Positions 23,054 to 42,364 of a stretch of 64,000 bases of DNA are shown piece by piece. The DNA lies in the NCBI GenBank assembly GCA_046539845.1, contig JBKHGE010000002.1, positions 1-64,000 on the forward strand. The letters run 5' to 3'. A program made the position numbers and the translations under genes. The notes beneath the pieces were generated by a model. It ran no database searches. It was given only the letters and a program-made list of their open reading frames with translations, and was not told the DNA's origin. The stretch's first letter is position 1, and every line of letters starts with the position of its first letter. The DNA comes from Desulfonatronovibrionaceae bacterium (GTDB taxonomy: Bacteria; Desulfobacterota; Desulfovibrionia; Desulfovibrionales; Desulfonatronovibrionaceae).

Positions 23054-25522
23054 TCAGGCAACTCTGCTGGAAATTTTTCCCTCAAACAGCCTCCAGGTGT
23101 CCAGAAAGGCGCGGTCCAAGCTTCTGACTCGGGCGTATTCACGGGCCTTTCTGCCCATTTCCTTCAATCTGCCTGGATCACCGGCCAGAGAGACGATTTT
23201 TTCGGCCAGTTGCTCCGGATCGTCGGCCGGGACAATCACGCCGGTTTCTCCGTCGATAATGTTTTCCCGGGGACCGCCGCGATCGGTGACAATCACCGGA
23301 ATGCCTGATGCCTGGGCCTCCAGGACCACGTTTCCGAAGGTGTCCGCGCCGGAGGGGAAGACGAACAGGTCTGCACCAGAATAAGCCCGAACCAGGCTTT
23401 CGCCGCTCAACTCGCCCGGGAAAGTTACTTTCAGTCCGGCGCACACCTCGTGCATTTCTTGTCTGTACGGTCCGTCGCCAACGACTTCAAGGCTCAGGCC
23501 CTCGATCCGCCTGCAGGCCTGGTCGAACGCCTCGGCCAACACATCCAGGCTTTTCTCCCTGGAGATCCGCCCGACATAGATAAGGCGCGTGTCTGTGCGT
23601 TTATTCTTGTGCTCGCACTTTCCGGGATAAAAGCGCTTGCAGTCCACACCTCGGGGATAGATCACGATCTTTTCCGGGCTGACCCCAAGCTTTTCCACTT
23701 CTTCGGCCGCGGCTTGGGAGGGAGCGTAAACCATCTCCATCTGGCTGTAGTACCAGCCCATATACCGCCGGGCTGCCTCTTCCAGGCTCCCGTCCCCGGT
23801 CATGCAGAATACGAAATCCGGGAAAGAGGTGTGGTAGGTGCCGTGAATGGGGATGTGCATGTTTTTGGATATGGCCAGGGCGGCCAGACCCATGGGACCT
23901 GGAGTGGCGGAGATGATCAGGTCATAGGCGCTGGTAAAACAGTGATCCATTATCTCCAGAAGCGGTGGACAGTGGAAGTTGAGTTGCGGGTATTCCTCCA
24001 ATTTGAAGGTGTGCACCGGGGCAAAGGATTTTATTCCCGGCCATTGTTCTCTGCCGGGCAGAGTTGATTTTTGTTCGCGGTCTTCGGATCCGTAAACGCT
24101 GCAATGCAAAACAGTCATGTCCTTTCCAAATTTTCGGGCCAGTTCCGCCTGTCCCCGAATGGTCAGGGCCACCCCGTTAACCTCCTCCAAGGTGTCCGTG
24201 AAATGGGCGATTCGAAAGCCTTGATTGTTTTCATCAGGCTTGTGCAGGAATTTCTGCCTGCATCTACCGGCAAATTCCCGCTCGCGGGAGAAAAGTCCGT
24301 AGGAGATGAAAAACGGGGCCAAAAGTGTATACAGGGAGCCAGAGGAGCCGATTGTCTTAAAGATATCGAAGAGCCGGGCGTTTTTCAGGTCTTCCAATAT
24401 TTCTCGGGACAAATGCGCGGTGATGCGATTGGAGGCCTGGGATACGAATTCCTGCCAGAGTCTGTCCCGGTCCGGGGCCTTGTCCGGTTTGTTCCCGGCC
24501 GCCTGTTTGAACCGGACGGTGTTATGAATAATGTCGTCCGCCTCCTTCAGGAATAAGTTCTGGATCAGATCGGTGTCCAGCAGCCGGAAATAAAGACTGG
24601 ATTTGCGCTGTGCCCAGGCCTGTTGGAGTTTTTGCAGCAAGCTGACCCGGCTTGTCCCGCCCGGAGCGAGCAGATTGTGGGTAAAGCGGAAAAAAATAGA
24701 TTTTTTAAGCGGCTGGGAGCAGTCCTTGGACAGGTAGAATTGATAGGCTATGGAGTATAGATTGCGGGCCATGGAGAGTGGTGTGTTCGATTCTCCGGCA
24801 AAAAGGGGTTTCTTTTCTCCCAGGAGCCGGAAAAAATCCACTTTGTTCGCGGCCTCAGGCATCTCCGTATACATGCAGGCGATGTTCAGACTGGAATGAT
24901 CGTCCGAGCCCCCGATCAGGCCTTTCTCCCAGGGGGCGCTCCCGAACGGCTCTATTTCGTGTTTGTTTGCAAGCCTTTCCACGTCTCCCCGGGAGAGTTC
25001 GCCGATTATCCGGCGCAGACAGTTGTTCTGGGAGACATCGCGACTGCCGTTCAACTCAAAATAATTAAACAAAAGCAAAAATTTCTCAATGTGCTCCAGG
25101 GTCAGTTTGTCGTTTACGGAAAACAAAGGATGGGCCAGGGCGTGGGCGATATTTTGGTTTCGTAGATAAAGGATCAGGTCATGAATGTTTTCCCGAATCT
25201 TGCCGAATTCGTGGTGGTCTTTTTCACTGATGTCCCAGGCCAAAATATGTGCCTTGCACCCGTCTTTTGGAAAATAGGTAGTTATCTCTTCGCTTAAAAA
25301 GGTGTTATCCAGATGGGCTATTTCCAGAGCGCCATTGATGCGGTTGTGGTCGGTGATGGTAACCAAGTCCATCCCCTTCTTCCTGGCGTCAGTGTATATA
25401 TCCAGGGGCTCGGTGAAGCTCTCCGGGCAGCCGATTTTTTGCAGAATCCATTGCGAAGGGCGCCTGGAATACTTGGAATGCACATGCAGGTCCGCTTTAA
25501 GCGAATTATGTCCATTTTTCAC
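23054..25522 (-). CDS. PHP-domain / family 4 glycosyltransferase fusion
   Basis: N-terminal DLHVHS, TITDHN, AHP, GGSDDH (PHP); C-terminal NGVA, YVGRISREK, FPSGADTFGNVVLEAQASG (GT4); GTG start after AGGAGG. Confidence 0.88.
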   Translation of the reverse strand: MKNGHNSLKADLHVHSKYSRRPSQWILQKIGCPESFTEPLDIYTDARKKGMDLVTITDHNRINGALEIAHLDNTFLSEEITTYFPKDGCKAHILAWDISEKDHHEFGKIRENIHDLILYLRNQNIAHALAHPLFSVNDKLTLEHIEKFLLLFNYFELNGSRDVSQNNCLRRIIGELSRGDVERLANKHEIEPFGSAPWEKGLIGGSDDHSSLNIACMYTEMPEAANKVDFFRLLGEKKPLFAGESNTPLSMARNLYSIAYQFYLSKDCSQPLKKSIFFRFTHNLLAPGGTSRVSLLQKLQQAWAQRKSSLYFRLLDTDLIQNLFLKEADDIIHNTVRFKQAAGNKPDKAPDRDRLWQEFVSQASNRITAHLSREILEDLKNARLFDIFKTIGSSGSLYTLLAPFFISYGLFSREREFAGRCRQKFLHKPDENNQGFRIAHFTDTLEEVNGVALTIRGQAELARKFGKDMTVLHCSVYGSEDREQKSTLPGREQWPGIKSFAPVHTFKLEEYPQLNFHCPPLLEIMDHCFTSAYDLIISATPGPMGLAALAISKNMHIPIHGTYHTSFPDFVFCMTGDGSLEEAARRYMGWYYSQMEMVYAPSQAAAEEVEKLGVSPEKIVIYPRGVDCKRFYPGKCEHKNKRTDTRLIYVGRISREKSLDVLAEAFDQACRRIEGLSLEVVGDGPYRQEMHEVCAGLKVTFPGELSGESLVRAYSGADLFVFPSGADTFGNVVLEAQASGIPVIVTDRGGPRENIIDGETGVIVPADDPEQLAEKIVSLAGDPGRLKEMGRKAREYARVRSLDRAFLDTWRLFEGKISSRVA

Positions 25523-25694
25523 GGCATTCTCCCTCCTTGAATTGTTGTGTTTGCCTTGATTTACCAAAAATAGATAGGCGGGCTCGGTTACAGAAAGATT
25601 TCCCGTGGGTTACAAAAAGGAAAAATTTAGGGGCAGCTCAAGGTATTATGGATTGGGCAGTAGAAAGGGAGAGAGTTGAAGTGGATAAGGCCGG

Positions 25695-25750: not shown

Positions 25751-27247
25751 TCACACTTTGGACTTTTTTAACTCGGAGATGATTGTTTTGACGATGACTA
25801 TGACCGTGAGCACCATCAAGGCCATGGCCACCGGTCGGGTGAAGAATTTGAACGGATCGTGCTGGGAGGAGATAATGATCTGCTGTAGATTGGTCTCCCA
25901 GATCGGGGCCAGAATGAATCCGATGATCAGGCTTATAAAGGAGAAATCGAATTTGCGCATGAAATAGGCCAGAAAGGCGAAAAAGAGCATCAGTTTTACG
26001 TCGAATATGTTGTACTGGGCCAGATAGGAGCCGATAAGACAGGTGAAAATAATGATTGGATACAGAATAGGCGGAGGGGCTTGTACCGCCCTGCAGAAAA
26101 GCCTCAAGCCCATGCGCCCCACTCCGAGCAAAAACACATTGGCCAAAATCAGGCTGCCGAAGATGGTGTAGATAAACTGGGCGTTGTCCTCGAACATCAA
26201 AGGGCCGGGGATCATCCCATGGATAATGAATGCCCCGATGAGCAGGGCTGCAGCCAGATTGCCCGGAATGCCTAAGGTAAACAAGGGAATCAGGCTCGCC
26301 CCGAGCACGGCGCTGTTTGCGGATTCGGAGGCGGCTATGCCGTTTAGTTCGCCCTTTCCGAAGTCTTCCGGGTTCTTGGCGTTCTTTTTGGCCCGGTCAT
26401 AGGCGAAAAATGAGGCCACCGGCGCACCCAATCCGGGCATGGAGCCGACTACCGTTCCGGCTACAGAGGAGCGCAGTATCGTTTTTACCGTCCCCAGGTA
26501 TTCGCGCAGGGAGACTCGGCGGTCCTCGGGGTTCTTGGAGAACTCCAGCGGCTGCCGGGGGAATTTTTTATTCAGGATTTCTTCGAGCTGGACAATGATC
26601 TCCGCGAAAGCCAACATGCCTATGCCCACCGGGATAAGGGATATGCCCCGTTCCAGCTTGTACAGGCCGAAAGTCAGGCGTGGCATGGCGGACACCGGCT
26701 CGGTGCCCAACGTGGCGATAAATATCCCCAGGGCCGCGGATATCAGCCCCCGGGCCAGAGAGGAGCTGCCCAGGCCGGCAATTATGGTCAAAGCCAGACA
26801 GATAAGGGCGAATATCTCCGAGGGGCCCATGTACAAGGCCACAGCAGCCAGGGGCGCGGCCACCAGAATTAGGACTATGGTCGAAAAAGCGTCCCCGGAA
26901 ACCGAACCGTAAAGGGCCATACGCAAGGCCTTTTCGCCCTTTCCCTGCCGAGTCAAGGGGTAGCCGTCCCAGCAGGTGGCAGCAGCTTCGGGTGTTCCCG
27001 GGGTATTTAAGAGTACTCCGGAGATGGCCCCGCCGTAAAATGCCCCTTTGTTCAGCCCGACCAAAAATCCTATAGCCACGACCGAGGGCATATAATAAGA
27101 CAGCGGGATGCACAGGGCGAGGGCCATGGGGCCGTTGATACCCGGGATGGCGCCCATGAACATCCCCGCTGTTACCCCCACCAGAACGAAAATAAGATTT
27201 AGAGGCTGCAGGGCGTCAATTAAGCCGGGGACTATAAACTCAAGCAT
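25751..27247 (-). CDS. tctA: tripartite tricarboxylate transporter large permease TctA
   Basis: GMFMGAIPG, YGGAISGVLLNTPGTP, GSMPGLG, ESANSA, TLGIPG motifs. Confidence 0.93.
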   Translation of the reverse strand: MLEFIVPGLIDALQPLNLIFVLVGVTAGMFMGAIPGINGPMALALCIPLSYYMPSVVAIGFLVGLNKGAFYGGAISGVLLNTPGTPEAAATCWDGYPLTRQGKGEKALRMALYGSVSGDAFSTIVLILVAAPLAAVALYMGPSEIFALICLALTIIAGLGSSSLARGLISAALGIFIATLGTEPVSAMPRLTFGLYKLERGISLIPVGIGMLAFAEIIVQLEEILNKKFPRQPLEFSKNPEDRRVSLREYLGTVKTILRSSVAGTVVGSMPGLGAPVASFFAYDRAKKNAKNPEDFGKGELNGIAASESANSAVLGASLIPLFTLGIPGNLAAALLIGAFIIHGMIPGPLMFEDNAQFIYTIFGSLILANVFLLGVGRMGLRLFCRAVQAPPPILYPIIIFTCLIGSYLAQYNIFDVKLMLFFAFLAYFMRKFDFSFISLIIGFILAPIWETNLQQIIISSQHDPFKFFTRPVAMALMVLTVIVIVKTIISELKKSKV

Positions 27248-27291
27248 GTCTGCTCCATTTGATATCGTATTGCCTGTCCGGGTTCATTCTC

Positions 27292-27765
27292 CTAAGGAAA
27301 AGGAACCTCTAGTCCGTAGCGCATGGCTGAATATATGATTCCCACGGTGACAATTGTTACCAATATTATTGTCATCGGCCTGCGCTGGCCGCATAGGTAT
27401 TGGATCACCAACATGAAAAGGAGAGAGGCTGGAATAAAGCCTATCCATTCCATGGCCGGCATAAGCAGGATGCAGGGAATCATAAATCGCAACAGGTGCC
27501 CCAATCGGACCTGTTCCTGGGGCGCTATTTTCTGATCGGTCTTGATCCCTTTTTTCTTTTCCGCCCGATAGGTCATAAAGAGCCGGATAAGCTCAATGCC
27601 GGAAAGAACCAGCATAATGCTGACCGCAATATTGGGCAGCAGATAGGCGGGCATCCCATAGCCCGGGTATTCCGGAGTGTTGGCCGGGATGACCCAGAAC
27701 AGAAAGATAATGCAGCCCACGATCATGCCGCTGTATATGATTGTATCTCGTCTTCGTTTTGTCAT
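27292..27765 (-). CDS. tctB: tripartite tricarboxylate transporter small subunit TctB
   Basis: 4 TM helices, P..LP motif, IGFI, C-terminal LEVPFP; lies between tctC and tctA. Confidence 0.85.
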   Translation of the reverse strand: MTKRRRDTIIYSGMIVGCIIFLFWVIPANTPEYPGYGMPAYLLPNIAVSIMLVLSGIELIRLFMTYRAEKKKGIKTDQKIAPQEQVRLGHLLRFMIPCILLMPAMEWIGFIPASLLFMLVIQYLCGQRRPMTIILVTIVTVGIIYSAMRYGLEVPFP

Positions 27766-27818
27766 CTCCGTTCCCTGTCGGCCGTGCGGTACGGTCCGAA
27801 ATGCAGAAGATTTTCAAA

Positions 27819-27860
27819 GCAGCTTGCCGGGAGCCTTGGCCGGGTCTCCCGGCAAGCTGC
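27819..27860 (-). other. strong intercistronic hairpin after tctC (mRNA stabiliser or attenuator)
   Basis: 15-bp perfect stem GCAGCTTGCCGGGAG/CTCCCGGCAAGCTGC. Confidence 0.65.
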
Positions 27861-27870
27861 AGGCAGGTAT

Positions 27871-28815
27871 TTATTGCTCGGCCTGCTTCCCAAACCGTTC
27901 ATAGGCCTCGTGCATGTATTCCTCGGCGTACTCCTTGCCGAAGTCTACCGGCCGCATCTTGAGCTCGTCCGCAATGTATTTCCTAAATTCCTCGTCGTCC
28001 GCAAGCTTATCCATGGCCTTTTCCAGGACTTCCAGCCTTTCCTCGGGCACGCCCTTGGGCGCGGCCAAGACCACGAACATCTCTACTGATTCGTCCCATC
28101 CCTGTTCCCGGAGTGTTGGCACATCAGGTATCTTGGTCAGCCTTTCCGGGGTGGTGGCGGCCAGCAGGGACAATTTGTCCGCCTGGACATATTCGAACAA
28201 AATCGCGCCCAGGTGACCCAGATCGGCATGACCGCCCATGACCGCCTTGATGACCGAAGGACCGCCGGAGCTGGGCATAAGGGAAATGTCTACCTCTTCC
28301 TGTGCGGCAATGCGCTCCATCACGTCCCGGTCGTCCGAGCCCTGGAACATATAGGTTAGACCTTTGTCGTTCTCCCGCGCCCATTCAAAGGCGTCTTTAA
28401 GGGTCTCCCAGGGCCGGTCCGGCTTGCAGACAATACCGCTTTGGTTCAGCCCCAGCATGGAGATGAAGGTGAAGTCGTCCAGGGAGTAATTCACATTGTT
28501 GTGGTGCGGTGTATAGGTAAACGCTGCCGTGGCCGAGGTCCCCAGGGTGTAGCCGTTGGGCTTGGCTGCACTCAGATCGGCAGCCATAACGCTTCCGTGG
28601 GAGCCGCCGGGGTTGTTTTTTACCAGTAGGGGCTGTCCGAGCACGTCCTTGAGTTCATTGGCCAGCCTGCGGGTGAGCAGGTCGATCTGGGCTCCGGGGC
28701 CGACCATAGTCATGAGCTTGACAGGTCGGTCCGGGTAGTCGGCCGCGCCAGCTGGTTGGACTACCCACATCCCGCCCAGTAAAGCACAGAGTAAAATGGT
28801 AAGTAAGGTTCGCAT
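27871..28815 (-). CDS. tctC: TctC/Bug-family periplasmic substrate-binding protein
   Basis: signal peptide, YPDRPVKL, N.PGG, KPNGYTL, PDVPTLREQG, APKGVP motifs. Confidence 0.9.
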   Translation of the reverse strand: MRTLLTILLCALLGGMWVVQPAGAADYPDRPVKLMTMVGPGAQIDLLTRRLANELKDVLGQPLLVKNNPGGSHGSVMAADLSAAKPNGYTLGTSATAAFTYTPHHNNVNYSLDDFTFISMLGLNQSGIVCKPDRPWETLKDAFEWARENDKGLTYMFQGSDDRDVMERIAAQEEVDISLMPSSGGPSVIKAVMGGHADLGHLGAILFEYVQADKLSLLAATTPERLTKIPDVPTLREQGWDESVEMFVVLAAPKGVPEERLEVLEKAMDKLADDEEFRKYIADELKMRPVDFGKEYAEEYMHEAYERFGKQAEQ

Positions 28816-28910
28816 AACCCCTCCTTGGTCTAGACATTTTCAATACAGGACCTTTTAAATCCCTCTTCCATGCATTATATCTTTGATAAAAGCACAAAAG
28901 AGGAAAGAGA

Positions 28911-28926
28911 TATCGTTTAGGCGATA
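28911..28926. promoter_or_regulatory. Crp/Fnr-type palindrome TATCG-N6-CGATA, copy 1, upstream of tctC
   Basis: TATCGtttaggCGATA; same motif at 33834 and 34003. Confidence 0.7.
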
Positions 28927-29012
28927 GTTTTGAAGATTAAAATTTTCGCCTCTGTAATTGACTCTTGTCTGCATTCGGGATGAAGCGGAACTGCGCCGCC
29001 TTCGGCCCCGGT

Positions 29013-31523
29013 CTAAATCTTGAACGGATTGGGTCCTTTTTCCTTGAGCAGGGCGATTCCGCTATGTAAAAAATCGACGTATTCCTGGATGTCCCTGGGA
29101 CCGAGCCCGGCAAATATAACCCGCTCCGGATCCATGGACATGTTTTTCAGCTTGTCCACCAGATCGTCGTAGCGCTTGCGGACCAGCTCGTTGCCTTTTA
29201 CATAATGACAGGTGTCTTCCGGACAGGCGCCGATAAAGACGCCGTCGATGCCCAGAGAAAGCGCATCCGCGATCAAGGCGTTGTTCAGAGCGCCGGCGCA
29301 AGGGACTTTCAGGGCTATCACATTGAAGGGCACGATTCCTTGGGCTTGGGCCTTTTTTGCCGCGAGCCAGGCATCGTTTGCGCATAAAAAGGCCAAGATC
29401 ACCGGCTCTTCTTTGGGCAGAAACGAGGTGTTGTCCCCGAGTATTTCCACCTGGGAGGCATACTGCTTGATGGTATGATGTCTGAGATCAACGGCGGTCT
29501 TGGGGCAGATGCCCATACAATTCCCGCACTGTCTGCACTTGCCCAAATCCGGGACCGGGATTTCCTTTTCGTTGTAGCTCAAAGCCAAAAACGGACATTC
29601 CTCCAGACAGCGCCCACACTGGTCGCATTTTTTTTCATTGAACGTCGGATAGGTGGGTTCTACCTCCAGGTCCTGGCCGAGAAAGCCCAGGGCTTCCAAA
29701 GCGGCCTTGGCCGCAGATTCTATCGACTGCGAGGCATTCATGGGCTCCCGGGCGCATCCGCCCACATAAATTCCGGTCCGCTGCGATTCGGCCGGGTAAC
29801 ACTGTTTGTGGCTCTCAAAAAATCCGTGCTCATTTTGGGGCAGGTCCAGCACCGGCCCGGTTTCCAGTCCGCTTGCCGACGGACACATCCCCCCGGCCAG
29901 AACAAGCAGGTCCAGGCTGGTTTTCACGTTGCGGCCCAGGTTTTCATCCAAGGCCTCGGCCGCGAGTTTGCCGGAATCCGGTTCAAAATCTATCTGCGAG
30001 GGCCGGCCCTTGAGAAAAACAGCCCCGGTCTTCCTGGCCTGACGGTACATATCCTCGTCAAAGCCCGGGGTACGGATATCCATATAGAATACGTAGCATT
30101 TGATTCCCGGGTTTATGCCTTTTAGTTCCAGAATCTGCTTCATGGTCGCGGAACAGCACACCGAGGAGCAATACGGCAAATGGCGTTCGTCCCGGCTCCC
30201 GGCGCACTGGATAAAGCCCACCGATTCCAGTTCGCTTATCTTGCGGCCGTTCACCCGCGGGATATGAGGGTCCTCCCGGGACAAAAGTCTTTCCATTTCC
30301 AGGTTGTCCACCACTCCGGGGAGCCGGCCGTAGCCGTATTCTTGCAGTCTTTCCACCGGGTACAGGTCCCAGCCGGTGGCCACCAGCACTGCACCCGCAT
30401 CCACGGATTCCATCTGTTCCTGGTCGTTGAGATCAATGGCCTGGTTGGGACAGATTGCTTCGCACTTGCGGCAGTCCGGCGGGCAATGGTCGCGTTCCAC
30501 AACAAAGGGCACTGGATGGGCCATGGGCAAGGCCGGATGAACGGCCTTGCGTCCGAACACGGCCGGCCGGTCTACAGACCGGTCTTGCAGTATCCCGTAT
30601 GGGTCTCTGGGCCGGGTCTTTGTCTCCTTGTTTTCAGTCTCCGAAGCCCGGTCACCGGTTTCGTCTTTTTCCCCGGGCTCCTCCAGGAGCGGTTCAGGAC
30701 TGCTAACTGGTCGGCACTGTACCGCCGGGATATTATCGGTCAGATCCACCGGGCATACTCCCTGACAGGCCCCGCACCCGTCACAATTTGTGTTTACAAA
30801 CCGCGGCGCTCGGCGCACAGTGGCGGTGAACCGGCCCGGTCCGCCCTCCAGACTTTCCACCCGAGCCAGGGTGCGCAGATCGAATTGCTCCGAGGGAGCA
30901 AGCTCGAACAGGATATGTTCCAGTCCGCAGCGCGGATCGCACATCCGGGGATAGAAGCGGGAGAGTTCCGCTACTTTGCCCCCGAGACCGGAGTTCTTTT
31001 CCACCAGAGTGACTGGTTTTCCTTGCCTGATCAGTGAAGCCGCGGCATGCAGCCCGGAAATGCCCCCGCCGATTATAAGGATACGTTCGTTAGCCGGCAG
31101 GGTCTCCGGCTCCAAAGGCTCCAGGTTTTTGGTCCTGGCCAAAGCCATCTTGAGCATGACCTGGGCTTTTTTGTCCCGCATCTCCTGGTCCTGCTCAGGG
31201 TTCAGAAGGCCCTGATCCCCGGGATCGAACCATTCCAGCATATACCGGTTGATCCCTGCGTCATTCAGGAGCCGGGTACAGTACTCTTTCTGGGACGGGA
31301 TGAATCCGCCCACAAAAAGGACGCGCTCAATTTCTTGGCCAAAGGATCCATCCCCGAGCAAAGTGGGGAATGCATCCAGAAACACGTCCTGGACGTGTTC
31401 GGTTTTGACCACGGCCTTGTTTTTTTCAGTTAAGGCCAGGAGCTTCCCCATGTCCAGGGCGGCGCTTAAGCGTCCGCCCTGGTCATTGAAGAAGACAGCT
31501 ATTTTCTTTGCTTTGGCAGCCAT
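29013..31523 (-). CDS. HdrA-family flavoprotein fused to MvhD/FlpD domain (QmoA/QmoB hybrid)
   Basis: GGGISG FAD motif, YPRMCDPRCG, inserted ferredoxin, QCAGSRD...YCSSVCC, two C-terminal CxxCxxCxxxCP, MvhD cysteines (FLC, VPC, GAC...CHY), ends KGPNPFK like QmoB. Confidence 0.88.
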   Translation of the reverse strand: MAAKAKKIAVFFNDQGGRLSAALDMGKLLALTEKNKAVVKTEHVQDVFLDAFPTLLGDGSFGQEIERVLFVGGFIPSQKEYCTRLLNDAGINRYMLEWFDPGDQGLLNPEQDQEMRDKKAQVMLKMALARTKNLEPLEPETLPANERILIIGGGISGLHAAASLIRQGKPVTLVEKNSGLGGKVAELSRFYPRMCDPRCGLEHILFELAPSEQFDLRTLARVESLEGGPGRFTATVRRAPRFVNTNCDGCGACQGVCPVDLTDNIPAVQCRPVSSPEPLLEEPGEKDETGDRASETENKETKTRPRDPYGILQDRSVDRPAVFGRKAVHPALPMAHPVPFVVERDHCPPDCRKCEAICPNQAIDLNDQEQMESVDAGAVLVATGWDLYPVERLQEYGYGRLPGVVDNLEMERLLSREDPHIPRVNGRKISELESVGFIQCAGSRDERHLPYCSSVCCSATMKQILELKGINPGIKCYVFYMDIRTPGFDEDMYRQARKTGAVFLKGRPSQIDFEPDSGKLAAEALDENLGRNVKTSLDLLVLAGGMCPSASGLETGPVLDLPQNEHGFFESHKQCYPAESQRTGIYVGGCAREPMNASQSIESAAKAALEALGFLGQDLEVEPTYPTFNEKKCDQCGRCLEECPFLALSYNEKEIPVPDLGKCRQCGNCMGICPKTAVDLRHHTIKQYASQVEILGDNTSFLPKEEPVILAFLCANDAWLAAKKAQAQGIVPFNVIALKVPCAGALNNALIADALSLGIDGVFIGACPEDTCHYVKGNELVRKRYDDLVDKLKNMSMDPERVIFAGLGPRDIQEYVDFLHSGIALLKEKGPNPFKI

Positions 31524-31846
31524 CAGTCTTCAACCCGGTTTTTATAGCGGTAGCGGGTGACATTCCCGTGTATGTCCTCACAGGTCCAGGTGATGCTGTT
31601 GGTCCCCATCATGGGGATCAGTTTCGCCTTGTGATACCCAATCTGATAAGGGATTCGGGTCTCTATGGCCCCCACAGGACAGACCTTGGTGCAGGACATA
31701 CAGTCCCAGCAGTGCCTAAGAGAGCGGCAGTATGCCTTGCCGTCCTTGGTCAGGGTCATCAAATTCCCGGGACAGACCTGTTCGCAAAGCGGCTCGTCCA
31801 GAGCCATGCAGCCGTCGCATTTTTGTAGATCCACTTTGGGTGGCAT
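31523..31846 (-). CDS. aprB: AprB-like 2x[4Fe-4S] subunit, short (107 aa)
   Basis: KCDGC...CEQVCPGNLM, CWDCMSCTKVCP with the electron-transfer Trp, ITWT; lacks the long C-terminal tail. Confidence 0.82.
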   Translation of the reverse strand: MPPKVDLQKCDGCMALDEPLCEQVCPGNLMTLTKDGKAYCRSLRHCWDCMSCTKVCPVGAIETRIPYQIGYHKAKLIPMMGTNSITWTCEDIHGNVTRYRYKNRVED

Positions 31847-31910
31847 GTGTATATAACCTCCTGATAGCAGTTAATCTAAGGATCAGTGGCTTTCCCCGGT
31901 GGAGAGCCGG

Positions 31911-33656
31911 CTACTCTTCGTCCACTATGCGTTCATAGGGCCTGGTGAACACCTCGATCTCGTCCGTCTCCAGATTCCTGCGGGATTCCACGAAGCAATT
32001 GAAATTCTCGTCGTCGCGTTCTGGAAAGTCGGTCCGGGTCTGCCAGCCAGCCCAGCGGGTCTCTTTGCGGCCTTTGAGGTGATGGCAGACTATCTCGGCC
32101 ACTTCGATGCGGTCCAGTACTTCATGGGCGTGCATCAGCTCGTGCAGGGACCTGGCTTTTAGGTATTGCACCTGTTGCTTCAAAAATCGGATGTGGTTCA
32201 GGGCATAGTCCAGCTGCTGCTCATTGACCCGGTAAAACTGGCTGGTTCCCCCGGCGTATTCGTCCATGAGCCGCTGCAGGCGCTCCTTGACTTCTTCGGG
32301 GATGAGCCCGTCGTAGTCTTCATCCTTGAACAGGGGAGAGAAGACGCGTTCTTTTTCCGCGTCTATCTGGGCCGGATCCGGATTCACATCTCCTTTTTCC
32401 TCTACGAACTTCAGGGCCCCGCGGGCGGAGATTTTGCCTTCAGCCGCGCACCCGCCAACGAACTTGTTGGGATTGCCTCCGGCTGTTTCTCCGGCTGCGA
32501 ACAGCCCCGGGACAGTGGTCATCCGTTCCATGTCCACCCAGTAGCCGCTTCCGGTGTGGCCGCCGACAATATAAGGGTCCGAGCCGTATACTTCCACCGG
32601 CTGTTCAGTGGGGTCAATGGCGTTGGCCGCCAAAAAAAGGACAAAAGAGGGGCGCTCATTCAGGTAGTCGGTGAGCATGCTGTGACAGGTCTCCTCGTCC
32701 ATAATCCTGGTGTCAATATAGGTCGGTCCCCGGCCGGACCTCCATTCCTCCATGGGGGCGTTGGCCCGGATGTAGCGGGGGGCCTTGTCTCCGCCTTTGT
32801 CCGCGTAGTGTTTTTCCAGGAAGTACTCGCCCTTGGCGTTTATCATCTTGGCATTGAATCCCACCGAGACCGTGTCCACCGGACCACAGTAATCCTTTGT
32901 CCTGGCCGCCACCCAGCGCTGCTCCATGGAAGTGAATTCCGCGCCCTTGCGCAGGCCCATGGCATAGCCGCTGCCCACATTGAATGGGCACATCCAGGTC
33001 TGTTGGTGGCAGGCGGTGGAGTCCGAAGTGTAGGATTTGTACAGTCCGCAGGCCCCGCCGGTGGCCACAATGGTTGATTTGGCCTTGAATACGTAGAACT
33101 TGCCGTTACGTACCCCAAAGCCCATGGCCCCGGCGCAGCGGTCCCCGTCCATGAGCAGGGCGGTACCCACGACCCGGTTGTAGATTTCTGCGGAATCCAT
33201 GGCCTTTTCCGCCATGATCGGCTTGAGCTGCTCGCCGTGGATGGATACATCCCAGGCTCCGCGGTATTTGGGATTGCCATCCTCGTCTTCCAGGATGGGC
33301 AGTCCCCATTCCGCGAGTTCGTCCACACATTGATTGAGTTCCTGGGCGTTGGAAAGGGCCAGGTCCTCGCGTAGAGGTCCGCCGCCGACCTGGGAGCGGC
33401 ACCAGCGGACCAAATCTTCCGGGGTCTTGCCCTCCCAGGTGGGGATATAGGTGTTAATGGCGTCCATCCCTGCAGCGCAGGCCCCGGAGCGCTTGATGTT
33501 CGCCTTTTCCATGATTACTATGTGCATATCCGGATTGAGCCTTCTGGCCTCATAGGCCGCGAAGCAGCCCGCATTCCCGCCTCCGATGATCAAAAGATCA
33601 CAGTCAACGGTTTCGGTCTGGACTTCATCCATATTTTGTGGAGTTGTCTCGGCCAT
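31911..33656 (-). CDS. aprA: adenylylsulfate reductase alpha subunit-like flavoprotein (non-canonical AprA)
   Basis: IIGGGNAG, EKANIKRSGACAAGMDAINTY, HGEQLKP, RTKD..GPV, PYIVGGH, GLFAAGE, RLQRLMDEYAGG, RKETRW; AGGAGG RBS 6 nt before ATG 33656. Confidence 0.85.
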   Translation of the reverse strand: MAETTPQNMDEVQTETVDCDLLIIGGGNAGCFAAYEARRLNPDMHIVIMEKANIKRSGACAAGMDAINTYIPTWEGKTPEDLVRWCRSQVGGGPLREDLALSNAQELNQCVDELAEWGLPILEDEDGNPKYRGAWDVSIHGEQLKPIMAEKAMDSAEIYNRVVGTALLMDGDRCAGAMGFGVRNGKFYVFKAKSTIVATGGACGLYKSYTSDSTACHQQTWMCPFNVGSGYAMGLRKGAEFTSMEQRWVAARTKDYCGPVDTVSVGFNAKMINAKGEYFLEKHYADKGGDKAPRYIRANAPMEEWRSGRGPTYIDTRIMDEETCHSMLTDYLNERPSFVLFLAANAIDPTEQPVEVYGSDPYIVGGHTGSGYWVDMERMTTVPGLFAAGETAGGNPNKFVGGCAAEGKISARGALKFVEEKGDVNPDPAQIDAEKERVFSPLFKDEDYDGLIPEEVKERLQRLMDEYAGGTSQFYRVNEQQLDYALNHIRFLKQQVQYLKARSLHELMHAHEVLDRIEVAEIVCHHLKGRKETRWAGWQTRTDFPERDDENFNCFVESRRNLETDEIEVFTRPYERIVDEE

Positions 33657-33833
33657 AATCATCCTCCTGGTTTTAGCGTTTTTTAAACGCTTTCTGTGAG
33701 ACTTGGTGCAAAGTTATCCCGCTTTACCCGGTAGATCGGCGTTGCAGCCGTTTAATGTCCGGGGTCCGGGACTCTCCCTGGCCAAAATGCCTTTGATTTC
33801 ATTTCCCGTATATATTTTCCCTGCCCGGTGAAC

Positions 33834-33849
33834 TATCGGGCCGCCGATA
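33834..33849. promoter_or_regulatory. Crp/Fnr-type palindrome TATCG-N6-CGATA, copy 2, upstream of the aprA-like gene
   Basis: TATCGggccgcCGATA; TATACG -10-like hexamer at 33812-33807 on the minus strand (class II spacing). Confidence 0.7.
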
Positions 33850-34002
33850 AACAAAGAAAAAAGTAGTTTTTTAGTAAAAAGCAACAAACGCCCGGGCCGA
33901 AAATTCTTAATCAATGGGTGCAAAACTGCGCTCGGTTTATGGTCCGGCATTTTTGTCCCTCTGTCCTTTATTGTGCATAAAATACAAAAAAGCCGGAAAA
34001 AC

Positions 34003-34018
34003 TATCGTCCCTGCGATA
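34003..34018. promoter_or_regulatory. Crp/Fnr-type palindrome TATCG-N6-CGATA, copy 3, upstream of the membrane Hdr gene
   Basis: AAAAC-TATCGtccctgCGATA-T; TAAAAG -10-like hexamer at 34039. Confidence 0.7.
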
Positions 34019-34127
34019 TATTTTTTGTTTATATCCGCTAAAAGCGAAGGCACAGATTGAGATGCAGGCCTGAATCCTGCGGATAGAATGTTAGAATGTC
34101 TAACTCCCAAAATATATGGAAGGGGCT

Positions 34128-35873
34128 ATGTTTTTTAATATTACCTTGGCGCTGTCCGTGGTTATTTTTGGCGCGGGCGTGATCTGGCGGGCAGGAAGCT
34201 GGCTGAAGAAAGACCCGGCCCAGGTTCCTCCTTCGTCCGGGCGGCTTAAGACTGCGGCCGCAGCCGTGTTCCGTGCTGTCTTCAGCAGGCGGATTCTGGC
34301 CGTGCTTAAGTCCTTTGCAATGGATGTGCTTTTGCAGAAAACAAGCCTGCGCCAGTCTCCCTTCCGTTGGGTCATGCATATGCTGATCTGGGTGGGGTTT
34401 GTCCTGCTTGTCGTCTTTCATGCTCTGGATGCCGTGACCAGCAAGAACCTTTTTCCCGGGTATTATCCCACCGTGAATCCGTACTGGATGCTGCGGGACA
34501 TATTGGGCGGTTTGGTGCTTCTCGGAGTACTTATGGCCGCTGGCCGCAGACTGCAGCCGGGGAACCCTAGGCTCAAATCCACGTCCAAAGACTGGATCGC
34601 TTTGATTCTGCTGGCGGTGATAATGCTTTCCGGATTCGCACTGGCCGGGATGAAGATAACCTCCAAACAGGCCTTTGACCGCATGGAGCGGGAGTACTCC
34701 CTTATTACTGAAAAAAAGGAGTCAAAACAGCTGGAGGCGTTCTGGGCGGCCGAATATGGCCTTGAGGCCTCCCCCATGGACCGCCCCCTGGATCCGGAGC
34801 AGGTTGAGGCCGGGGCGGAGCTGAACCGTCTCTATTGCGCGGACTGCCATTCCAGACCGCAGACCGCTCCGGTCAGCTATGTGACCGCAGCGCTGATCGG
34901 ACCGGTTGCCGGTCCACTGGATAGGATCAATTTTGCCTCTTTTTTGTGGCATGTGCACTTTTTGTTTGTCTTTGCCGGGCTTGCCTATCTGCCCTTTGGC
35001 AAGTTTTTCCATATCCTGGCCACTCCAGCGTATCTTTTGGCCCGGGCCGGAATGGGCCGGGCGGATGATCCGACCGGCTCGTCCGTTATGCGGGCCATGG
35101 CCCTGGACGCCTGTATGCACTGCGGGGCGTGCAGCGAGATCTGCGCAGTAGGGTCCGTACATGCGGTTATTCCCAACGACCTGATCCTGCCTTCGGAAAA
35201 GATCGCCCTCCTGCAGCGTCTGGCCCGGGGCCAGCCTTTGCGGGGAGAGGATCTGCCCGAAGCGGTAGAGGGTATGCTTTTGTGCACCAATTGCAGCCGC
35301 TGCGGAGATGTATGCCCTGCCGGGATTGACCTGCAGAAATTGTGGGACGCGGTACGGGAAGGGCTTTTGGCTAAGGGTGCGGCCGACCACCCTGATCCGA
35401 TACTTTTATCCGCTTTGTCCTTTTACCGCGCCGGGCGGGCCGGGGAGCTGGGCCCGGCCTACGCCCCGCCCCGCGATCGGGCTTGGCAAAAGATAGCCGC
35501 TCTTTCCCCGGAGCCGGCAGAAGATCCGGTGGCTCTCCCGGCGGCGGACAATCCCGCTTTGCAAAGGATCAAATCCAGCTCCCAGTCTTTTTCCCTTGCC
35601 TATTGCTACAGCTGCCGGACCTGTTCTTCGGTCTGCCCGCTAAAGGAGGAGTTTGAAAATCCACACCAGGACCTGGGGCTTTTACCGCATCAGATCATTC
35701 ACGCCGTTTTGCTGGGCCGGCCGGATATGGCCCTTGGCTGCAGGATGCTCTGGGCCTGTCTGGGCTGTTACCAGTGCCAGGAACAGTGTCCACAGGGCGT
35801 GGCAGTGACCGAGGTATTTTATGAACTCAAAAACCTGGCCCTGGACCGGGCCCGGGAAAAGGGCCGGGGATAA
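34128..35873 (+). CDS. membrane oxidoreductase: NarI-like cytochrome b domain, CxxCH heme c loop and two HdrC-like dicluster domains
   Basis: RWVMHML..GF, WHVHFL, LPFGKFFHI (NarI-type heme b His); CADCH; CMHCGACSEIC, CTNCSRCGDVCP, CYSCRTCSSVCP, CLGCYQCQEQCP. Confidence 0.82.
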   Translation: MFFNITLALSVVIFGAGVIWRAGSWLKKDPAQVPPSSGRLKTAAAAVFRAVFSRRILAVLKSFAMDVLLQKTSLRQSPFRWVMHMLIWVGFVLLVVFHALDAVTSKNLFPGYYPTVNPYWMLRDILGGLVLLGVLMAAGRRLQPGNPRLKSTSKDWIALILLAVIMLSGFALAGMKITSKQAFDRMEREYSLITEKKESKQLEAFWAAEYGLEASPMDRPLDPEQVEAGAELNRLYCADCHSRPQTAPVSYVTAALIGPVAGPLDRINFASFLWHVHFLFVFAGLAYLPFGKFFHILATPAYLLARAGMGRADDPTGSSVMRAMALDACMHCGACSEICAVGSVHAVIPNDLILPSEKIALLQRLARGQPLRGEDLPEAVEGMLLCTNCSRCGDVCPAGIDLQKLWDAVREGLLAKGAADHPDPILLSALSFYRAGRAGELGPAYAPPRDRAWQKIAALSPEPAEDPVALPAADNPALQRIKSSSQSFSLAYCYSCRTCSSVCPLKEEFENPHQDLGLLPHQIIHAVLLGRPDMALGCRMLWACLGCYQCQEQCPQGVAVTEVFYELKNLALDRAREKGRG

Positions 35874-35886
35874 TAAGGGGAATGAT

Positions 35887-36720
35887 ATGAATTATGCCAT
35901 TTTCCGCTGCTGTGTGACCAACCGTTTGCTGCAGGAATACGAGACCGCCACAGACGGTGTGTTGACCGCCATAGACATCCCGGCCCTGGACATAAGGGAT
36001 TTCGGGTGCTGCGGCTATCCGCTGCGTAATGTGGACTACACTGCGTCCATGTATTCCGCGGCCCGTAATTTTGCTTTGGCCGAGCGGGCTGGGCTGGACA
36101 TCCTCACCGTGTGCAACTGCTGTTTCGGATCGCTTAAGCAGGCGGCTTACTCCCTGGCTGCGGATCCCGGCCTGGCGGCCGGGAGCAAAGAGAGGCTGGA
36201 AAAAGAGGGGCTGACACTTTCCGGGGAGGTGCGGGTCAGACATCTTTTGCAGGTCCTTTATCAGGATATAGGTCCCGGGGAGCTGTCCGAAAGGATTTGC
36301 CGGCCCCTGCACGGCCTGCGGGCGGTTATCCACTACGGCTGCCATCTCTTGCGGCCCTCGGATGTGGTAGGATTTGATGACCCCTTTGATCCGAGCATTT
36401 GCGAGGATCTGGTCGCGGCCGTAGGGGTGGAGTGCCTGGATTGGGAACGGCGCCTGGACTGCTGCGGAGCTCCTTTGGCCGGGACTTTTGATGATCTGTC
36501 CTTATCTTTGAGCAGGCAGAAATTGCGAGCCGCAGCCGGGGTGGGAGCGCACTGCCTGCTCTGCGTGTGTCCTTTTTGTCAGCTACAGTTTGAGCGTGCC
36601 CGCAGGGAAATGATCAATCGCGGCCAAGACACCCCTGAGGTGGTGGGCTTTGTCCAGCTTTTGGCCGCTGCCTTGGGCCGGGAACAAAACCTGCCTGTCT
36701 TGCAGCTGTCCGGGAAATAA
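35887..36720 (+). CDS. hdrB: heterodisulfide reductase subunit B-like protein
   Basis: two CCG domains: GCCG...TVCNCC and HYGCH...DCCG...CVCPFC. Confidence 0.88.
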   Translation: MNYAIFRCCVTNRLLQEYETATDGVLTAIDIPALDIRDFGCCGYPLRNVDYTASMYSAARNFALAERAGLDILTVCNCCFGSLKQAAYSLAADPGLAAGSKERLEKEGLTLSGEVRVRHLLQVLYQDIGPGELSERICRPLHGLRAVIHYGCHLLRPSDVVGFDDPFDPSICEDLVAAVGVECLDWERRLDCCGAPLAGTFDDLSLSLSRQKLRAAAGVGAHCLLCVCPFCQLQFERARREMINRGQDTPEVVGFVQLLAAALGREQNLPVLQLSGK

Positions 36721-36866
36721 TCCTTTCCCCTTCGGCCACACATTAGTCGAGGAGGCATAAATTTTCCCGGCTGCAGAAATCTCTTGTCTATCTTCCGGTT
36801 TTTGGCCTATTATTCAATCATATTGATGTAGGCACGTTATTCTAATATCGTTTTCCGGAGGAGGAC

Positions 36867-37556
36867 ATGCCTGGACAATGGCATTTGGGAGTGGGAGATT
36901 TCTTTGAGGACCTGCCGCAGGAGCGGGAGGCCTTTCTTAAGCTGGCCCGGACCCGCGAGATTTCCCGCAATGAGATCGTGTTTTTCGAGGGAGATCCCGG
37001 ACATTCCTGTTTTTATCTGGAACGGGGGCTGATCAAGATCTTCCGCATCACGCCTTCAGGCAAGGAGTCCATATTCTTCCTGCGCCGTTCCGGGGAACTC
37101 TTCGGGCTGGCCGAAGTCATGGATTCCTCGGCCCGCAAGGCAAACGCTCAGGCCCTTTCTCCGTGTCTTCTGCACGAGATGCCCTGCCGTGAATTCAACT
37201 CCTTTCTGGAGGAATATATTACGGCCACGCGTAAGGTGGTCCGTACCCTGGGCCGCAGGGTACGTTACCTGGGGGAGCAGGTAAGCAACCTCATGGTCTG
37301 CGATGTAAGCATGCGACTGGTAAAGCTCCTGGTGTACATAGGCTATGACCGGCTGCAGACCGAGGACGCTTGGCTTCGTCCGGTACACATTCCGGTCCGC
37401 CTGACCCAGGAGCAGATGGCGGCCATGACCGGATCGTGCCAGCAGACAGTAAGTGAACTCTTAAACCGTTATCAGGAAGAGGGGCTTATTGAATTCAACC
37501 GCAAAGAGATAGTCATCCTCAATCCGTTGTCCCTGCTGGAAAAGGCCCAAATTTAG
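36867..37556 (+). CDS. Crp/Fnr-family transcriptional regulator
   Basis: FFEGDP, GLIKI, GELFG, C-terminal HTH LTQEQMAAMTGSCQQTVSELL; GGAGGA RBS. Confidence 0.93.
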   Translation: MPGQWHLGVGDFFEDLPQEREAFLKLARTREISRNEIVFFEGDPGHSCFYLERGLIKIFRITPSGKESIFFLRRSGELFGLAEVMDSSARKANAQALSPCLLHEMPCREFNSFLEEYITATRKVVRTLGRRVRYLGEQVSNLMVCDVSMRLVKLLVYIGYDRLQTEDAWLRPVHIPVRLTQEQMAAMTGSCQQTVSELLNRYQEEGLIEFNRKEIVILNPLSLLEKAQI

Positions 37557-37624
37557 GGCTCAAGCTATGCCTGTCGGGGGACTGCAGCAAGCTTCGAGTC
37601 TGATGGCCTGGTCCGGATAGTTTT

Positions 37625-38368
37625 TTAGATTACCTGGAAAAGGAGCTTTATTCCCAGCCCCAGGATAAGCAGGGCCAGAAGCCTTTTTACCGTATCCGGG
37701 GAAAGTCGGAGCTGCATGAAGTGCGTGCCCAGATAGCCTCCGGCGCAGGCGGCCAGCCCCACGGGCAAAACCAGTTCGGGCCGGAGATGCCCCATTCCCC
37801 AGTAGGCCAGAAATCCGGTAAATGAGGAAAAGGGCACGGCAAAAGCGGTCACTGCGGCGATTTTTTTCGGATTGAATCCTAGAACCAGAAGGAGCGGGGA
37901 GATGACTCCGCCGCCGCCCACTCCGAGTATGCCGGAAAGCCCCCCGGCCAGGGCGCCTATACCGAGGAGTGGGGCAGCAGGACGGTCTTCGCGGTATTGT
38001 TCCTTGTACTTTCCTCCCTTGAAAAACAGCATCATGTTCCCGGAGAAAAACAAAAACAAAACGAATAAAAGCAAGATGATCCGTTCCGGAAACAGGGTAG
38101 AGAAATAGGCGCCGGCCGGGGCAATGACAACCGAGCTTATGATTATGGGCAGGCCGAGGGAAAAATCCAGCTTCTTTTGTCTGATATTGGAAACAGTGGC
38201 GCTGACCATGCTTACCGTGTTCACAAAAAGGCCGGTAGGTTTGGCCTCGGTCATGGGGATGCCCAGCCAGCTCAAAATCGGGATGAGGACCACGGCCGAG
38301 CCCACGCCGCCCAAGGCGAAGGCGAAGCTCAAAAAAAAGGCCAAGGTGCTGATGAGGGCGGTTTCCAT
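37625..38368 (-). CDS. TauE/SafE (TSUP) sulfur-compound exporter
   Basis: GGVGSAVVLIP and SGILGVGGGGVISP repeats; about 8 TM helices. Confidence 0.88.
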   Translation of the reverse strand: METALISTLAFFLSFAFALGGVGSAVVLIPILSWLGIPMTEAKPTGLFVNTVSMVSATVSNIRQKKLDFSLGLPIIISSVVIAPAGAYFSTLFPERIILLLFVLFLFFSGNMMLFFKGGKYKEQYREDRPAAPLLGIGALAGGLSGILGVGGGGVISPLLLVLGFNPKKIAAVTAFAVPFSSFTGFLAYWGMGHLRPELVLPVGLAACAGGYLGTHFMQLRLSPDTVKRLLALLILGLGIKLLFQVI

Positions 38369-38374
38369 GCCTGT

Positions 38375-38764
38375 CTACTTCCCCCGGCCGGACCTTTGAT
38401 ACAAGGGACCGGGTTTCAGCTGCGCAGCCAATTGCTCTATGCTTCCGGTCAGCCCCTTGAGCGAATCAAACCCCTTGGACAGGAGATAGCCGTAGACCAA
38501 AGCGGCCCGGAAGATAGAGGAGCACATAACTATTACCAGCCCCTGGGCGGGGATTTCGTCCAGACGGTCCGGCAGTTCGCTGACCGGGATGTTTTTGGCC
38601 CGGGGAAAATTTAAGAGACCCACTTCCTCCCGGGTGCGTACATCCAGAAAAAAGGCTTTATTTTCCTCGTAGACCCGCGCCGCCTCGGGCACGGATATGG
38701 AATGCTCGCCGGAACCGAAAAAATCAAAGTCCATTTCCCTTAATGCCTGATCCATTTTATCCAT
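38375..38764 (-). CDS. rhodanese-like sulfurtransferase
   Basis: FLDVRTREE, NIPVSELPDRLDEIP, active-site loop MCSSIFRA, GLTGSI. Confidence 0.88.
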   Translation of the reverse strand: MDKMDQALREMDFDFFGSGEHSISVPEAARVYEENKAFFLDVRTREEVGLLNFPRAKNIPVSELPDRLDEIPAQGLVIVMCSSIFRAALVYGYLLSKGFDSLKGLTGSIEQLAAQLKPGPLYQRSGRGK

Positions 38765-42363: not shown

Positions 42364-42364
42364 T

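Follow-up and report, generated by a model that had tools for sequence, protein, structure and literature searches.

The window analysed here, a 64,000-nucleotide stretch from a Desulfonatronovibrionaceae bacterium (assembly GCA_046539845.1, contig JBKHGE010000002.1, positions 1 to 64,000), carries a gene module built around a second pair of genes resembling those of adenosine 5'-phosphosulfate (APS) reductase, here called aprA2 and aprB2. With a probability of about two in three, this module encodes an inducible reductase that splits sulfite off an imported X-SO3 compound and so supplies the sulfite reductase DsrAB, without ATP-dependent sulfate activation. The module is real, conserved and apparently uncharacterised. 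An earlier note on this DNA had reached the same central idea, which stands, whereas the details it attached to an exporter, a rhodanese, a persulfide and thiosulfate do not.

AprA2 shares 31% identity with the canonical AprA of the same genome, and AprB2 comprises 107 amino acids (aa) compared with 167 aa in its canonical counterpart. On the canonical profile TIGR02061 (cut-off 642 bits), AprA2 scores 431 bits and the canonical AprA 1061; on NF006131, the profile of the PRK08275-type flavoproteins, it reaches 319 bits, below the cut-off of 587. It passes the short-AprA profile NF005331 with 591 bits (cut-off 557), and its nearest solved relative is the reductase of 3'-phosphoadenosine 5'-phosphosulfate (PAPS) from Methanothermococcus (E 4e-144). 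As the earlier note had supposed for a second, non-canonical AprAB, AprA2 falls outside the canonical clade in two trees. With its relatives it forms one side of a branch, supported by 99-100 (FastTree, 99 rows) and 96 (IQ-TREE quick, 51 rows), separate from both canonical AprA and the short AprA linked to sat. The branching order differs between the trees: rooted with PRK08275-type proteins, IQ-TREE makes the AprA2 clade sister to canonical plus short AprA with a support of just 82, while FastTree places it among the short forms. Judged from its sequences, AprA2 defines a distinct clade across the Desulfobacterota, Bacillota and Chloroflexota.

Relatives with 63-70% identity occur in 20/400 sampled genomes of the phylum, where four further matches (39-51% identity) are short sister AprA, and AprA2 is present in 26/161 genomes of one gut- and sediment-dwelling Desulfovibrionales family. 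Named carriers include Desulfovibrio desulfuricans, D. intestinalis, Desulfocurvibacter africanus and species of Fundidesulfovibrio and Solidesulfovibrio; a second search yielded members from the Bacillota and Chloroflexota, for example Moorella glycerini, Calderihabitans, Desulfofundulus and Pelosinus. Lookups in the ESM Atlas returned generic names only. In the family to which the source organism belongs, 26 genomes yielded no full-length aprA2, and one congener (G003, contig C50; L307:4111-5710) has the operator described below, a TSUP gene and a 131-aa truncated aprA2 of a different sub-lineage, without aprB2. The module has thus been gained and lost, and the truncated copy in the congener is an independent gain followed by decay.

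The earlier note called for a separate canonical locus in the genome, and sat-aprB-aprA-qmoABC was found on contig C50 of the source genome (2.34 Mb, 98.9% complete); its dsrA lies on contig C3. For the survey, 113 aprA2 loci were merged into 53 groups at 90% AprA2 identity, and module counts are given per group. Neither sat nor an APS kinase gene occurs in any of the 113 loci, and some carriers have no sat at all, which upholds the proposed independence from Sat. The short sister AprA, in contrast, lies beside sat in 4/4 cases, three of them in genomes without dsrA. Among 32 carriers tested, dsrA was detected in 31 (it was missed in G427, where there are two NIR_SIR matches), canonical aprA in 29 and sat in 30. 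A stand-alone APS kinase above the cut-off is encoded in the source genome (C1:125220-125756), distant from both apr loci. Four Desulfovibrio-type carriers (G043, G332, G460, G461) have two full-length copies of dsrA.

The carriers without an ATP sulfurylase domain are G100 (100% complete), G465 (96%) and G329 (94%), of which G465 belongs to the same genus as G100 and is therefore not an independent case. Canonical aprA, qmoC and cysD were also not found in G100 and G329, nor was an APS kinase above the cut-off. In both, a transporter-aprA2-aprB2-hdrA-hdrC-hdrB array shares the strand of dsrA and stops about 300 bp short of it, ahead of the remaining dsr cluster, in which dsrD, dsrN and dsrC were labelled from their translations. 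In G465, the module abuts a glycyl-radical sulfolyase of the HpsG/IseG type. In one further genome (L267), a minimal module directly follows qmoABC.

The active site combines conserved and exchanged residues. Positions follow Archaeoglobus fulgidus AprA by HMMER alignment, with clade rows that include near-copies; the roles of the residues at the sulfite site, phosphate, ribose and channel are those given in PMC2211403. Asn74, Trp234, Arg265 and His398, which hold sulfate or sulfite and bend the flavin, are kept together with Arg317 in 70/70 clade rows (N70, W223, R254, H369 and R299 in AprA2), and the first four also in 79/79 further rows. The AMP pocket, in contrast, is changed: phosphate, ribose and channel residues are swapped in 70/70 clade rows. 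Compared with 28 canonical sequences, all 70 have Gly274 replaced by Asp, His446 by Asn, Gln145 by Asp, Leu278 by Val, and Phe261 and Tyr95 by Trp; Phe277 is Ser in 69/70, and the canonical set of AMP-channel residues is not present. The Asp, Asn and Asp at positions 274, 446 and 145 hold in 79/79 further, mostly Bacillota-type members. Gly274 is kept in 28/28 canonical and 21/21 short AprA; the corresponding Asp263 occurs in all clade rows.

In its own numbering, the clade-specific residues of AprA2 are D67, W87, D138, W250, D263, R296, E336, R337 and N399. Glu336 takes the position of Met365 and Arg296 that of Thr314, where canonical AprA have Thr or Ala. Arg296 aligns with the Arg of the APRD/ASRD motif of succinate dehydrogenase/fumarate reductase (Sdh/Frd), which is the catalytic acid of those enzymes. 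D67, R296, E/D336 and K/R337 are shared with PRK08275-type flavoproteins (25, 17, 30 and 22 of 33 rows, respectively). These residues suggest that sulfite chemistry may have been retained and the AMP pocket lost, with a residue in place that could protonate a worse leaving group. AprA2B2 would accordingly resemble an APS reductase in its sulfur chemistry, yet it belongs neither to the canonical nor to the assimilatory group.

A role of AprA2B2 as an additional APS or PAPS reductase, serving assimilation or held as a back-up, is improbable, even though the nearest solved structure and the NF005331 score point that way. The DiSCo study describes AprAB-like pairs in 63 organisms, nine of them with Dsr, and proposes assimilation for them, noting sodium:sulfate symporters nearby (PMC8477390); its set likely overlaps the AprA2 clade. 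The sat genes of most carriers, the APS kinase of the source genome, and carrier G148, in which sat is present and canonical aprA was not found, fit the same idea. Against it stand the 113 loci without sat or kinase and the sat-less carriers, among them, judged by gene order and lengths, Taurinivorans muris (PMC10507020). The otherwise invariant Gly274 is Asp in the clade, and Lys120, Arg121 and Ser122, which determine PAPS specificity in the Methanothermococcus enzyme (PMC10322725), align with Ala, Trp and Asp in AprA2. Assimilatory reduction would, moreover, be needless for organisms that produce sulfide.

Several known systems resemble the module in part. Like AprAB-QmoABC (A. fulgidus 1JNR/2FJA, Desulfovibrio gigas 3GYX), it pairs an FAD subunit that keeps Asn74, Trp234, Arg265, His398 and Arg317 with a 2x[4Fe-4S] subunit bearing a Trp relay, and 28/53 groups add a QmoB-like HdrA-MvhD partner. 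It departs from this system in the order aprA-aprB, in an AprB without tail, in the low identity and separate position of AprA2, in the substitutions G274D, H446N, Q145D, F277S, L278V, M365E and T314R, and in having its own transporter and Crp but no QmoA or QmoC and never a neighbouring sat. The Methanothermococcus thermolithotrophicus PAPS reductase (8A8O) and the short AprAB-like group (NF005331; DiSCo) share the short alpha subunit, the tail-less beta subunit, the gene order and an often adjacent gene of the divalent anion:sodium symporter (DASS) family, and the former is a precedent for a substrate switch through few residues. Unlike the short group, which keeps Gly274 and lay beside sat wherever tested, AprA2 stands in a clade by itself, has none of the 3'-phosphate residues and goes together with respiration through DsrAB.

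The PRK08275-type clusters, whose importers are of the ABC type, and AsfAB have in common with the module an importer, a flavoprotein, a small ferredoxin and a local regulator, besides the four shared residues. Their flavoproteins are, however, about 30-35% identical to AprA2, mostly lack Asn74, Trp234 and Arg265, and occur in aerobic hosts. We take AsfA of aryl-sulfonate desulfonation to be of the PRK08275 type. According to published descriptions, it assists a monooxygenase by transferring electrons (PMC4267179; see also PMC2864759). PRK08275-like flavoproteins, one to three per genome, were also seen in 15/17 genomes of the family of G329 (L244-L262), often preceding an Fe-S/NAD(P)H oxidoreductase and in the vicinity of importers of the tripartite tricarboxylate transporter (TTT) or ABC type. 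The sulfonate pathways (IseG/IslA, HpsG, Xsc and SuyAB, with the carriers SauXYZ, SauI and SlcHFG) likewise import organosulfur anions through TTT or DASS, release sulfite and feed DsrAB respiration, but they use non-redox lyases and carbon-processing accessory enzymes, whereas the module has a redox flavoenzyme and no conserved accessory enzyme. The clade is not singled out in the available parts of PMC10504309, PMC10591310, PMC5099947 and PMC13490349, and no paper defining the clade, its operator or its substrate was found in the open-access literature, subscription journals being outside the scope.

The conserved core consists of an anion transporter (TTT, DASS or TSUP), aprA2, the tail-less aprB2 and crp. 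It recurs in 53 groups of loci, so that the clustering is not due to chance, and aprB2 is present in all of them. The conserved association of AprAB with an importer-family transporter and Crp, claimed earlier, was recovered in the survey: crp occurs in 41/53 groups and a transporter in as many, drawn from three unrelated families (TctC in 19, two DASS types in 6 and 14, TSUP in 6); several of the 12 groups without a transporter are short contigs. The Hdr subunits are optional, with hdrA-mvhD in 28/53 groups, hdrB in 11/53, a membrane NarI-HdrC fusion in 7/53, and HdrA-HdrC-Flx without HdrB in about six. Membrane-derived electrons as a general feature and HdrB as the handler of a persulfide co-product, both suggested earlier, fit poorly with these counts. 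With importer, catalytic pair, HdrA-MvhD, membrane HdrC, HdrB and regulator all present, the window holds the fullest version of the module. Its right end had been drawn too far: tauE, rhodanese, DUF401 and otr adjoin the module in 1/53 groups, the window itself, and tauE and rhodanese, once counted as members, occur without it in congener G002. None of the outcomes that the earlier note held to be fatal to its proposal turned up; the aprAB of the window is not the only copy in its genome, and the gene set does co-occur elsewhere.

Beyond Flx, HdrC, TSUP, YeiH and binding proteins, no accessory catabolic gene recurs across the 113 loci. In 7/53 groups (e.g. L008:4574-5482), the gene after tctA encodes a ModA-like SBP_bac_11 protein in which no signal peptide is obvious, and PhnD-like binding proteins stand beside DASS-type loci in about three. 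Two groups have a sulfotransferase-family gene and a second Crp adjoining the module (L048:3115-4260; L146:9923-11065). A TtrA-like molybdoenzyme with NrfC/NrfD-type partners lies upstream of it in one group (L062:16129-19353; L055:15902-17916), and a glycine/sarcosine/betaine reductase cluster directly precedes DASS-aprA2 in one Desulfobaccales-type locus (L014:3166-7240).

An unbiased palindrome count turned up TATCG-N6-CGATA, the operator that Crp presumably binds. It is exact in 18/43 upstream regions, compared with a shuffle mean of 0.02, and is found somewhere in the locus in 29/53 groups. The source genome contains four exact sites where 0.8 are expected, three at module promoters (Table 1) and the fourth inside an open reading frame (ORF). 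With a 17-letter form of the operator, all matches lie at the module in 6/21 other genomes, and seven have none. Of the distal sites in other genomes, 15 were inspected and are mostly within ORFs or without a clear target, and no distal regulon names the substrate; a sigma-70 scan of the divergent region gave no match. The tight regulation postulated earlier is supported by this operator pattern and by the near-silent published cluster of T. muris discussed below.

The electron-input proteins follow the HdrABC-MvhD plan, with HdrA FAD and Fe-S motifs (the N-terminal cysteines of HdrA are missing), an MvhD domain, HdrC, and an HdrB with two CCG motifs. HdrA-MvhD is 35% identical to QmoB of the source genome, and the set differs from QmoABC in having one HdrA-MvhD only and a membrane subunit that scores 64 bits on NF038018 (cut-off 300). 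The Glu and Lys that mark a bifurcating flavin site are retained in HdrA. These residues, the blocked AMP pocket beside a kept sulfite site, and the occurrence of sulfite or sulfate exporters in the TauE and YeiH families would suit an oxidative, AMP-independent sulfite oxidase, in which water reacts with the FAD-sulfite adduct and low-potential electrons pass to Hdr, for disproportionation or detoxification; a bolder variant would be direct sulfate reduction with bifurcated electrons. Such a role seems quite unlikely, as 19/53 groups have a binding-protein importer, many lack Hdr, and carriers with Sat would lose ATP. The T. muris cluster is silent although sulfite is made intracellularly under all three conditions studied, and the strain does not grow on sulfate or sulfite (PMC10507020). 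For the oxidative running in disproportionation envisaged by the earlier note, there is no evidence in favour and some against.

TctC is 22-29% identical to the TctC of sulfolyase-rich genomes, and its ligand loop differs from the G-G-x-D type of most of 19 other TctC; carboxylate-binding loops are altered in the DASS carriers of the module as well. TTT and DASS are interchangeable for sulfoacetate uptake in sulfite reducers (PMC10413351). Sulfoacetate-type carriers were rejected as a model for the module, for which no close TctC or DASS relatives were found in sulfolyase-rich genomes. It is also improbable that the substrate is no X-SO3 compound at all and that the enzyme, a reductase akin to fumarate reductase or one for other oxyanions (selenium, phosphorus), merely resembles Apr. 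The Sdh/Frd-type Arg, the residues shared with PRK08275-type flavoproteins, the mostly carboxylate-carrying TTT and DASS families, and the PhnD-like and ModA-like proteins at some loci favour this alternative, but the four sulfite-site residues are invariant, nearly all carriers (31/32) have dsrA, two genomes have the module joined to their dsr cluster and a third has it joined to a sulfolyase locus, and the carboxylate-binding loops have changed.

Under the preferred reading of an X-SO3 reductase, Crp would sense the substrate and switch on three promoters via TATCG-N6-CGATA, and TctCBA (DASS or TSUP elsewhere) would import it. HdrA-MvhD would deliver electrons to AprB2, being itself fed here by the membrane cytochrome/HdrCB unit and in other groups by Flx/NADH; where Hdr is lacking, they would probably come from the house QmoABC. 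The electrons would cross two [4Fe-4S] clusters and Trp47 to the FAD, whose reduced N5 would attack the sulfonyl sulfur as in APS reductase, while Arg296, at the place of the Sdh/Frd catalytic acid, would protonate the leaving group X. Sulfite would then be released from the FAD adduct, and X-H would require no dedicated further enzyme.

Published data on Taurinivorans muris, the one experimental data set found, bear on the substrate (PMC10507020). This bacterium has aprAB but no sat or qmoAB, in the order crp, tctC-like gene, two membrane genes, aprA (1761 bp) and aprB (324 bp), which matches the module in order and length, without Hdr. On taurine, sulfolactate and thiosulfate, aprA reached 0.26, 0.67 and 1.87 transcripts per million (TPM), respectively, and dsrA 448, 279 and 751; aprA did not change significantly across the three acceptors, and no protein was detected. 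Near-silence under three ordinary acceptors is what would be expected of an inducible system. T. muris did not grow on DHPS (2,3-dihydroxypropane-1-sulfonate), isethionate, cysteate, sulfate or sulfite. Allowing for a cluster that lacks Hdr and may be decaying, these data argue against those compounds as the substrate and against constitutive expression.

A cytoplasmic thiosulfate reductase in place of the molybdoenzyme PhsA is the least likely of the alternatives. The source genome and G038 have no PhsA-like protein, tetrathionate-reductase-like genes lie near the module (Otr in the window, TtrA-like in one group), and with sulfide as the leaving group, an acid in the form of Arg would be fitting. 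PhsA-like genes, however, occur in 22/26 carriers and 61/135 non-carriers of the one family sample, in which kin are not independent, and G100 and G148 have PhsA-like proteins too; AprA2 as a PhsA replacement was rejected on this co-occurrence, which is the opposite of replacement. T. muris respires thiosulfate without PhsA while its cluster stays at a TPM of 1.9 with no protein (PMC10507020), and thiosulfate, among the substrates offered by the earlier note, has lost ground accordingly. In the source genome, QrcB (C4:79024-80139) is the sole match to a molybdopterin-oxidoreductase domain; PhsA, TtrA and formate dehydrogenase alpha were not found with this query.

Choline-O-sulfate was dropped, as CutC in 3/26 carriers and 25/135 non-carriers (counted by hand) gives it no support. 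A sulfolyase is present in 13/26 carriers and 38/135 non-carriers, a weak association among genomes that are not independent, and none was found in the source genome or G100. Taken over all readings, S-sulfonates (S-sulfocysteine, polythionates) are the leading, still tentative, guess at the substrate. Provided that the module does release sulfite from an X-SO3 compound, S-sulfonates of the S-sulfocysteine or tri-/tetrathionate type come close to an even chance; C-sulfonates follow at a clear distance, sulfate esters are slightly less probable again, and sulfamate and thiosulfate are equally doubtful. S-sulfocysteine, an amino-acid-like anion, would suit a pocket with Arg and Asp/Glu, and its product cysteine would need no extra enzyme. 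The available part of PMC5701242 has canonical apsB only and mentions no second Apr, and PMC6278857 contains nothing on one.

A number of points weigh against an X-SO3 reductase. We know of no direct precedent for an N5 attack with a poor leaving group. Residue roles were transferred from an alignment, a single-sequence structure model being unusable with a predicted local distance difference test (pLDDT) score of 33. Because 30/32 carriers keep sat and 29/32 canonical aprA, APS is available in most of them; G148 combines sat with a missing canonical aprA, and the absence of sat elsewhere comes from draft genomes. The operator was not found in several Desulfovibrio-type loci, and the G100 locus lacks crp. 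The direction of transport is deduced from families that, in the case of TSUP and YeiH, include exporters. The T. muris cluster is assigned to the clade by order and length alone, and its silence could also mean decay.

On balance, we lean slightly towards regarding AprA2B2 as an enzyme class not described so far, through which dissimilatory sulfur respiration would gain a new entry. A flavin would reductively strip sulfite from a sulfo compound that is imported and S-, O-, N- or C-linked, an overlooked electron acceptor in habitats ranging from soda and hypersaline mats through sediments and wetlands to the gut. Its branch would lie between PRK08275-type flavoproteins and APS reductases and preserve a pre-APS, pre-Sat function of the Apr scaffold. 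If this holds, about 5% of the sampled Desulfobacterota and 16% of the one family would make respiratory sulfite, and hence H2S, from an overlooked compound, with the two ATP equivalents of sulfate activation saved. Databases label AprA2 proteins as APS reductase, so that a genome with an AprA2 copy alone may pass wrongly for that of a partial sulfate reducer. Which substrate the Apr scaffold originally had is an open question (PMC10504309). It would become directly testable with the AprA2 clade, which is present in cultured strains and offers an operator, a binding protein and a regulon of small size.

All eleven ORFs named in the earlier note lie at the positions and on the strands it gave, and their families were matched in Pfam and NCBIfam (Table 1). 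The eight Cys and the electron-transfer Trp (W47) of AprB2 are invariant, and TctA, TctB and TctC form a complete TTT triad. The NarI-type membrane subunit has conserved His at 88, 102, 281 and 299 and four CxxCxxC motifs. The GC content of the module (0.56) equals that of the window.

Table 1. Features of the aprA2 module and its right-hand border, in window positions.
Feature	Positions	Strand	Basis or remark
aprA2, FAD subunit, 583 aa	31911..33662	-	profile match, alignment
aprB2, 2x[4Fe-4S] subunit, 107 aa	31523..31846	-	profile match; no C-terminal tail
hdrA-mvhD fusion, 836 aa, QmoB-like	29013..31523	-	optional electron-input part (28/53 groups)
tctC, periplasmic binding protein	27871..28815	-	module-specific subfamily, altered ligand loop PGAQID
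tctB, small membrane subunit	27292..27765	-	
tctA, large membrane subunit	25751..27247	-	
Membrane subunit, 585 aa: NarI-type cytochrome b, one CxxCH, HdrC-like Fe-S domains	34116..35873	+	optional, 7/53 groups
hdrB, both CCG motifs	35890..36720	+	optional, 11/53 groups
crp, Crp/Fnr-family regulator, recognition helix QQTVS	36867..37556	+	41/53 groups
tauE and rhodanese	37625..38764	-	outside the conserved module; accompany DUF401, otr and cytochrome b
Operator TATCG-N6-CGATA, about 95 bp upstream of tctC	28911..28926		exact match
Operator TATCG-N6-CGATA, upstream of aprA2	33834..33849		exact match
Operator TATCG-N6-CGATA, upstream of membrane subunit	34003..34018		exact match

To the right of the module, an octaheme cytochrome of the tetrathionate-reductase family (Otr; TIGR04315, 604 bits) and a cytochrome b are encoded at 40699-43018 on the plus strand. 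Together with DUF401 (39044-40345), tauE and rhodanese, they are conserved in two congeners, where no aprA2 module adjoins them. On the other side, just 3' of tctA, an 837-aa fusion (23054-25567, minus strand) joins what seems to be a PHP-like N-terminal domain to a family-4 glycosyltransferase and is unrelated to the module.

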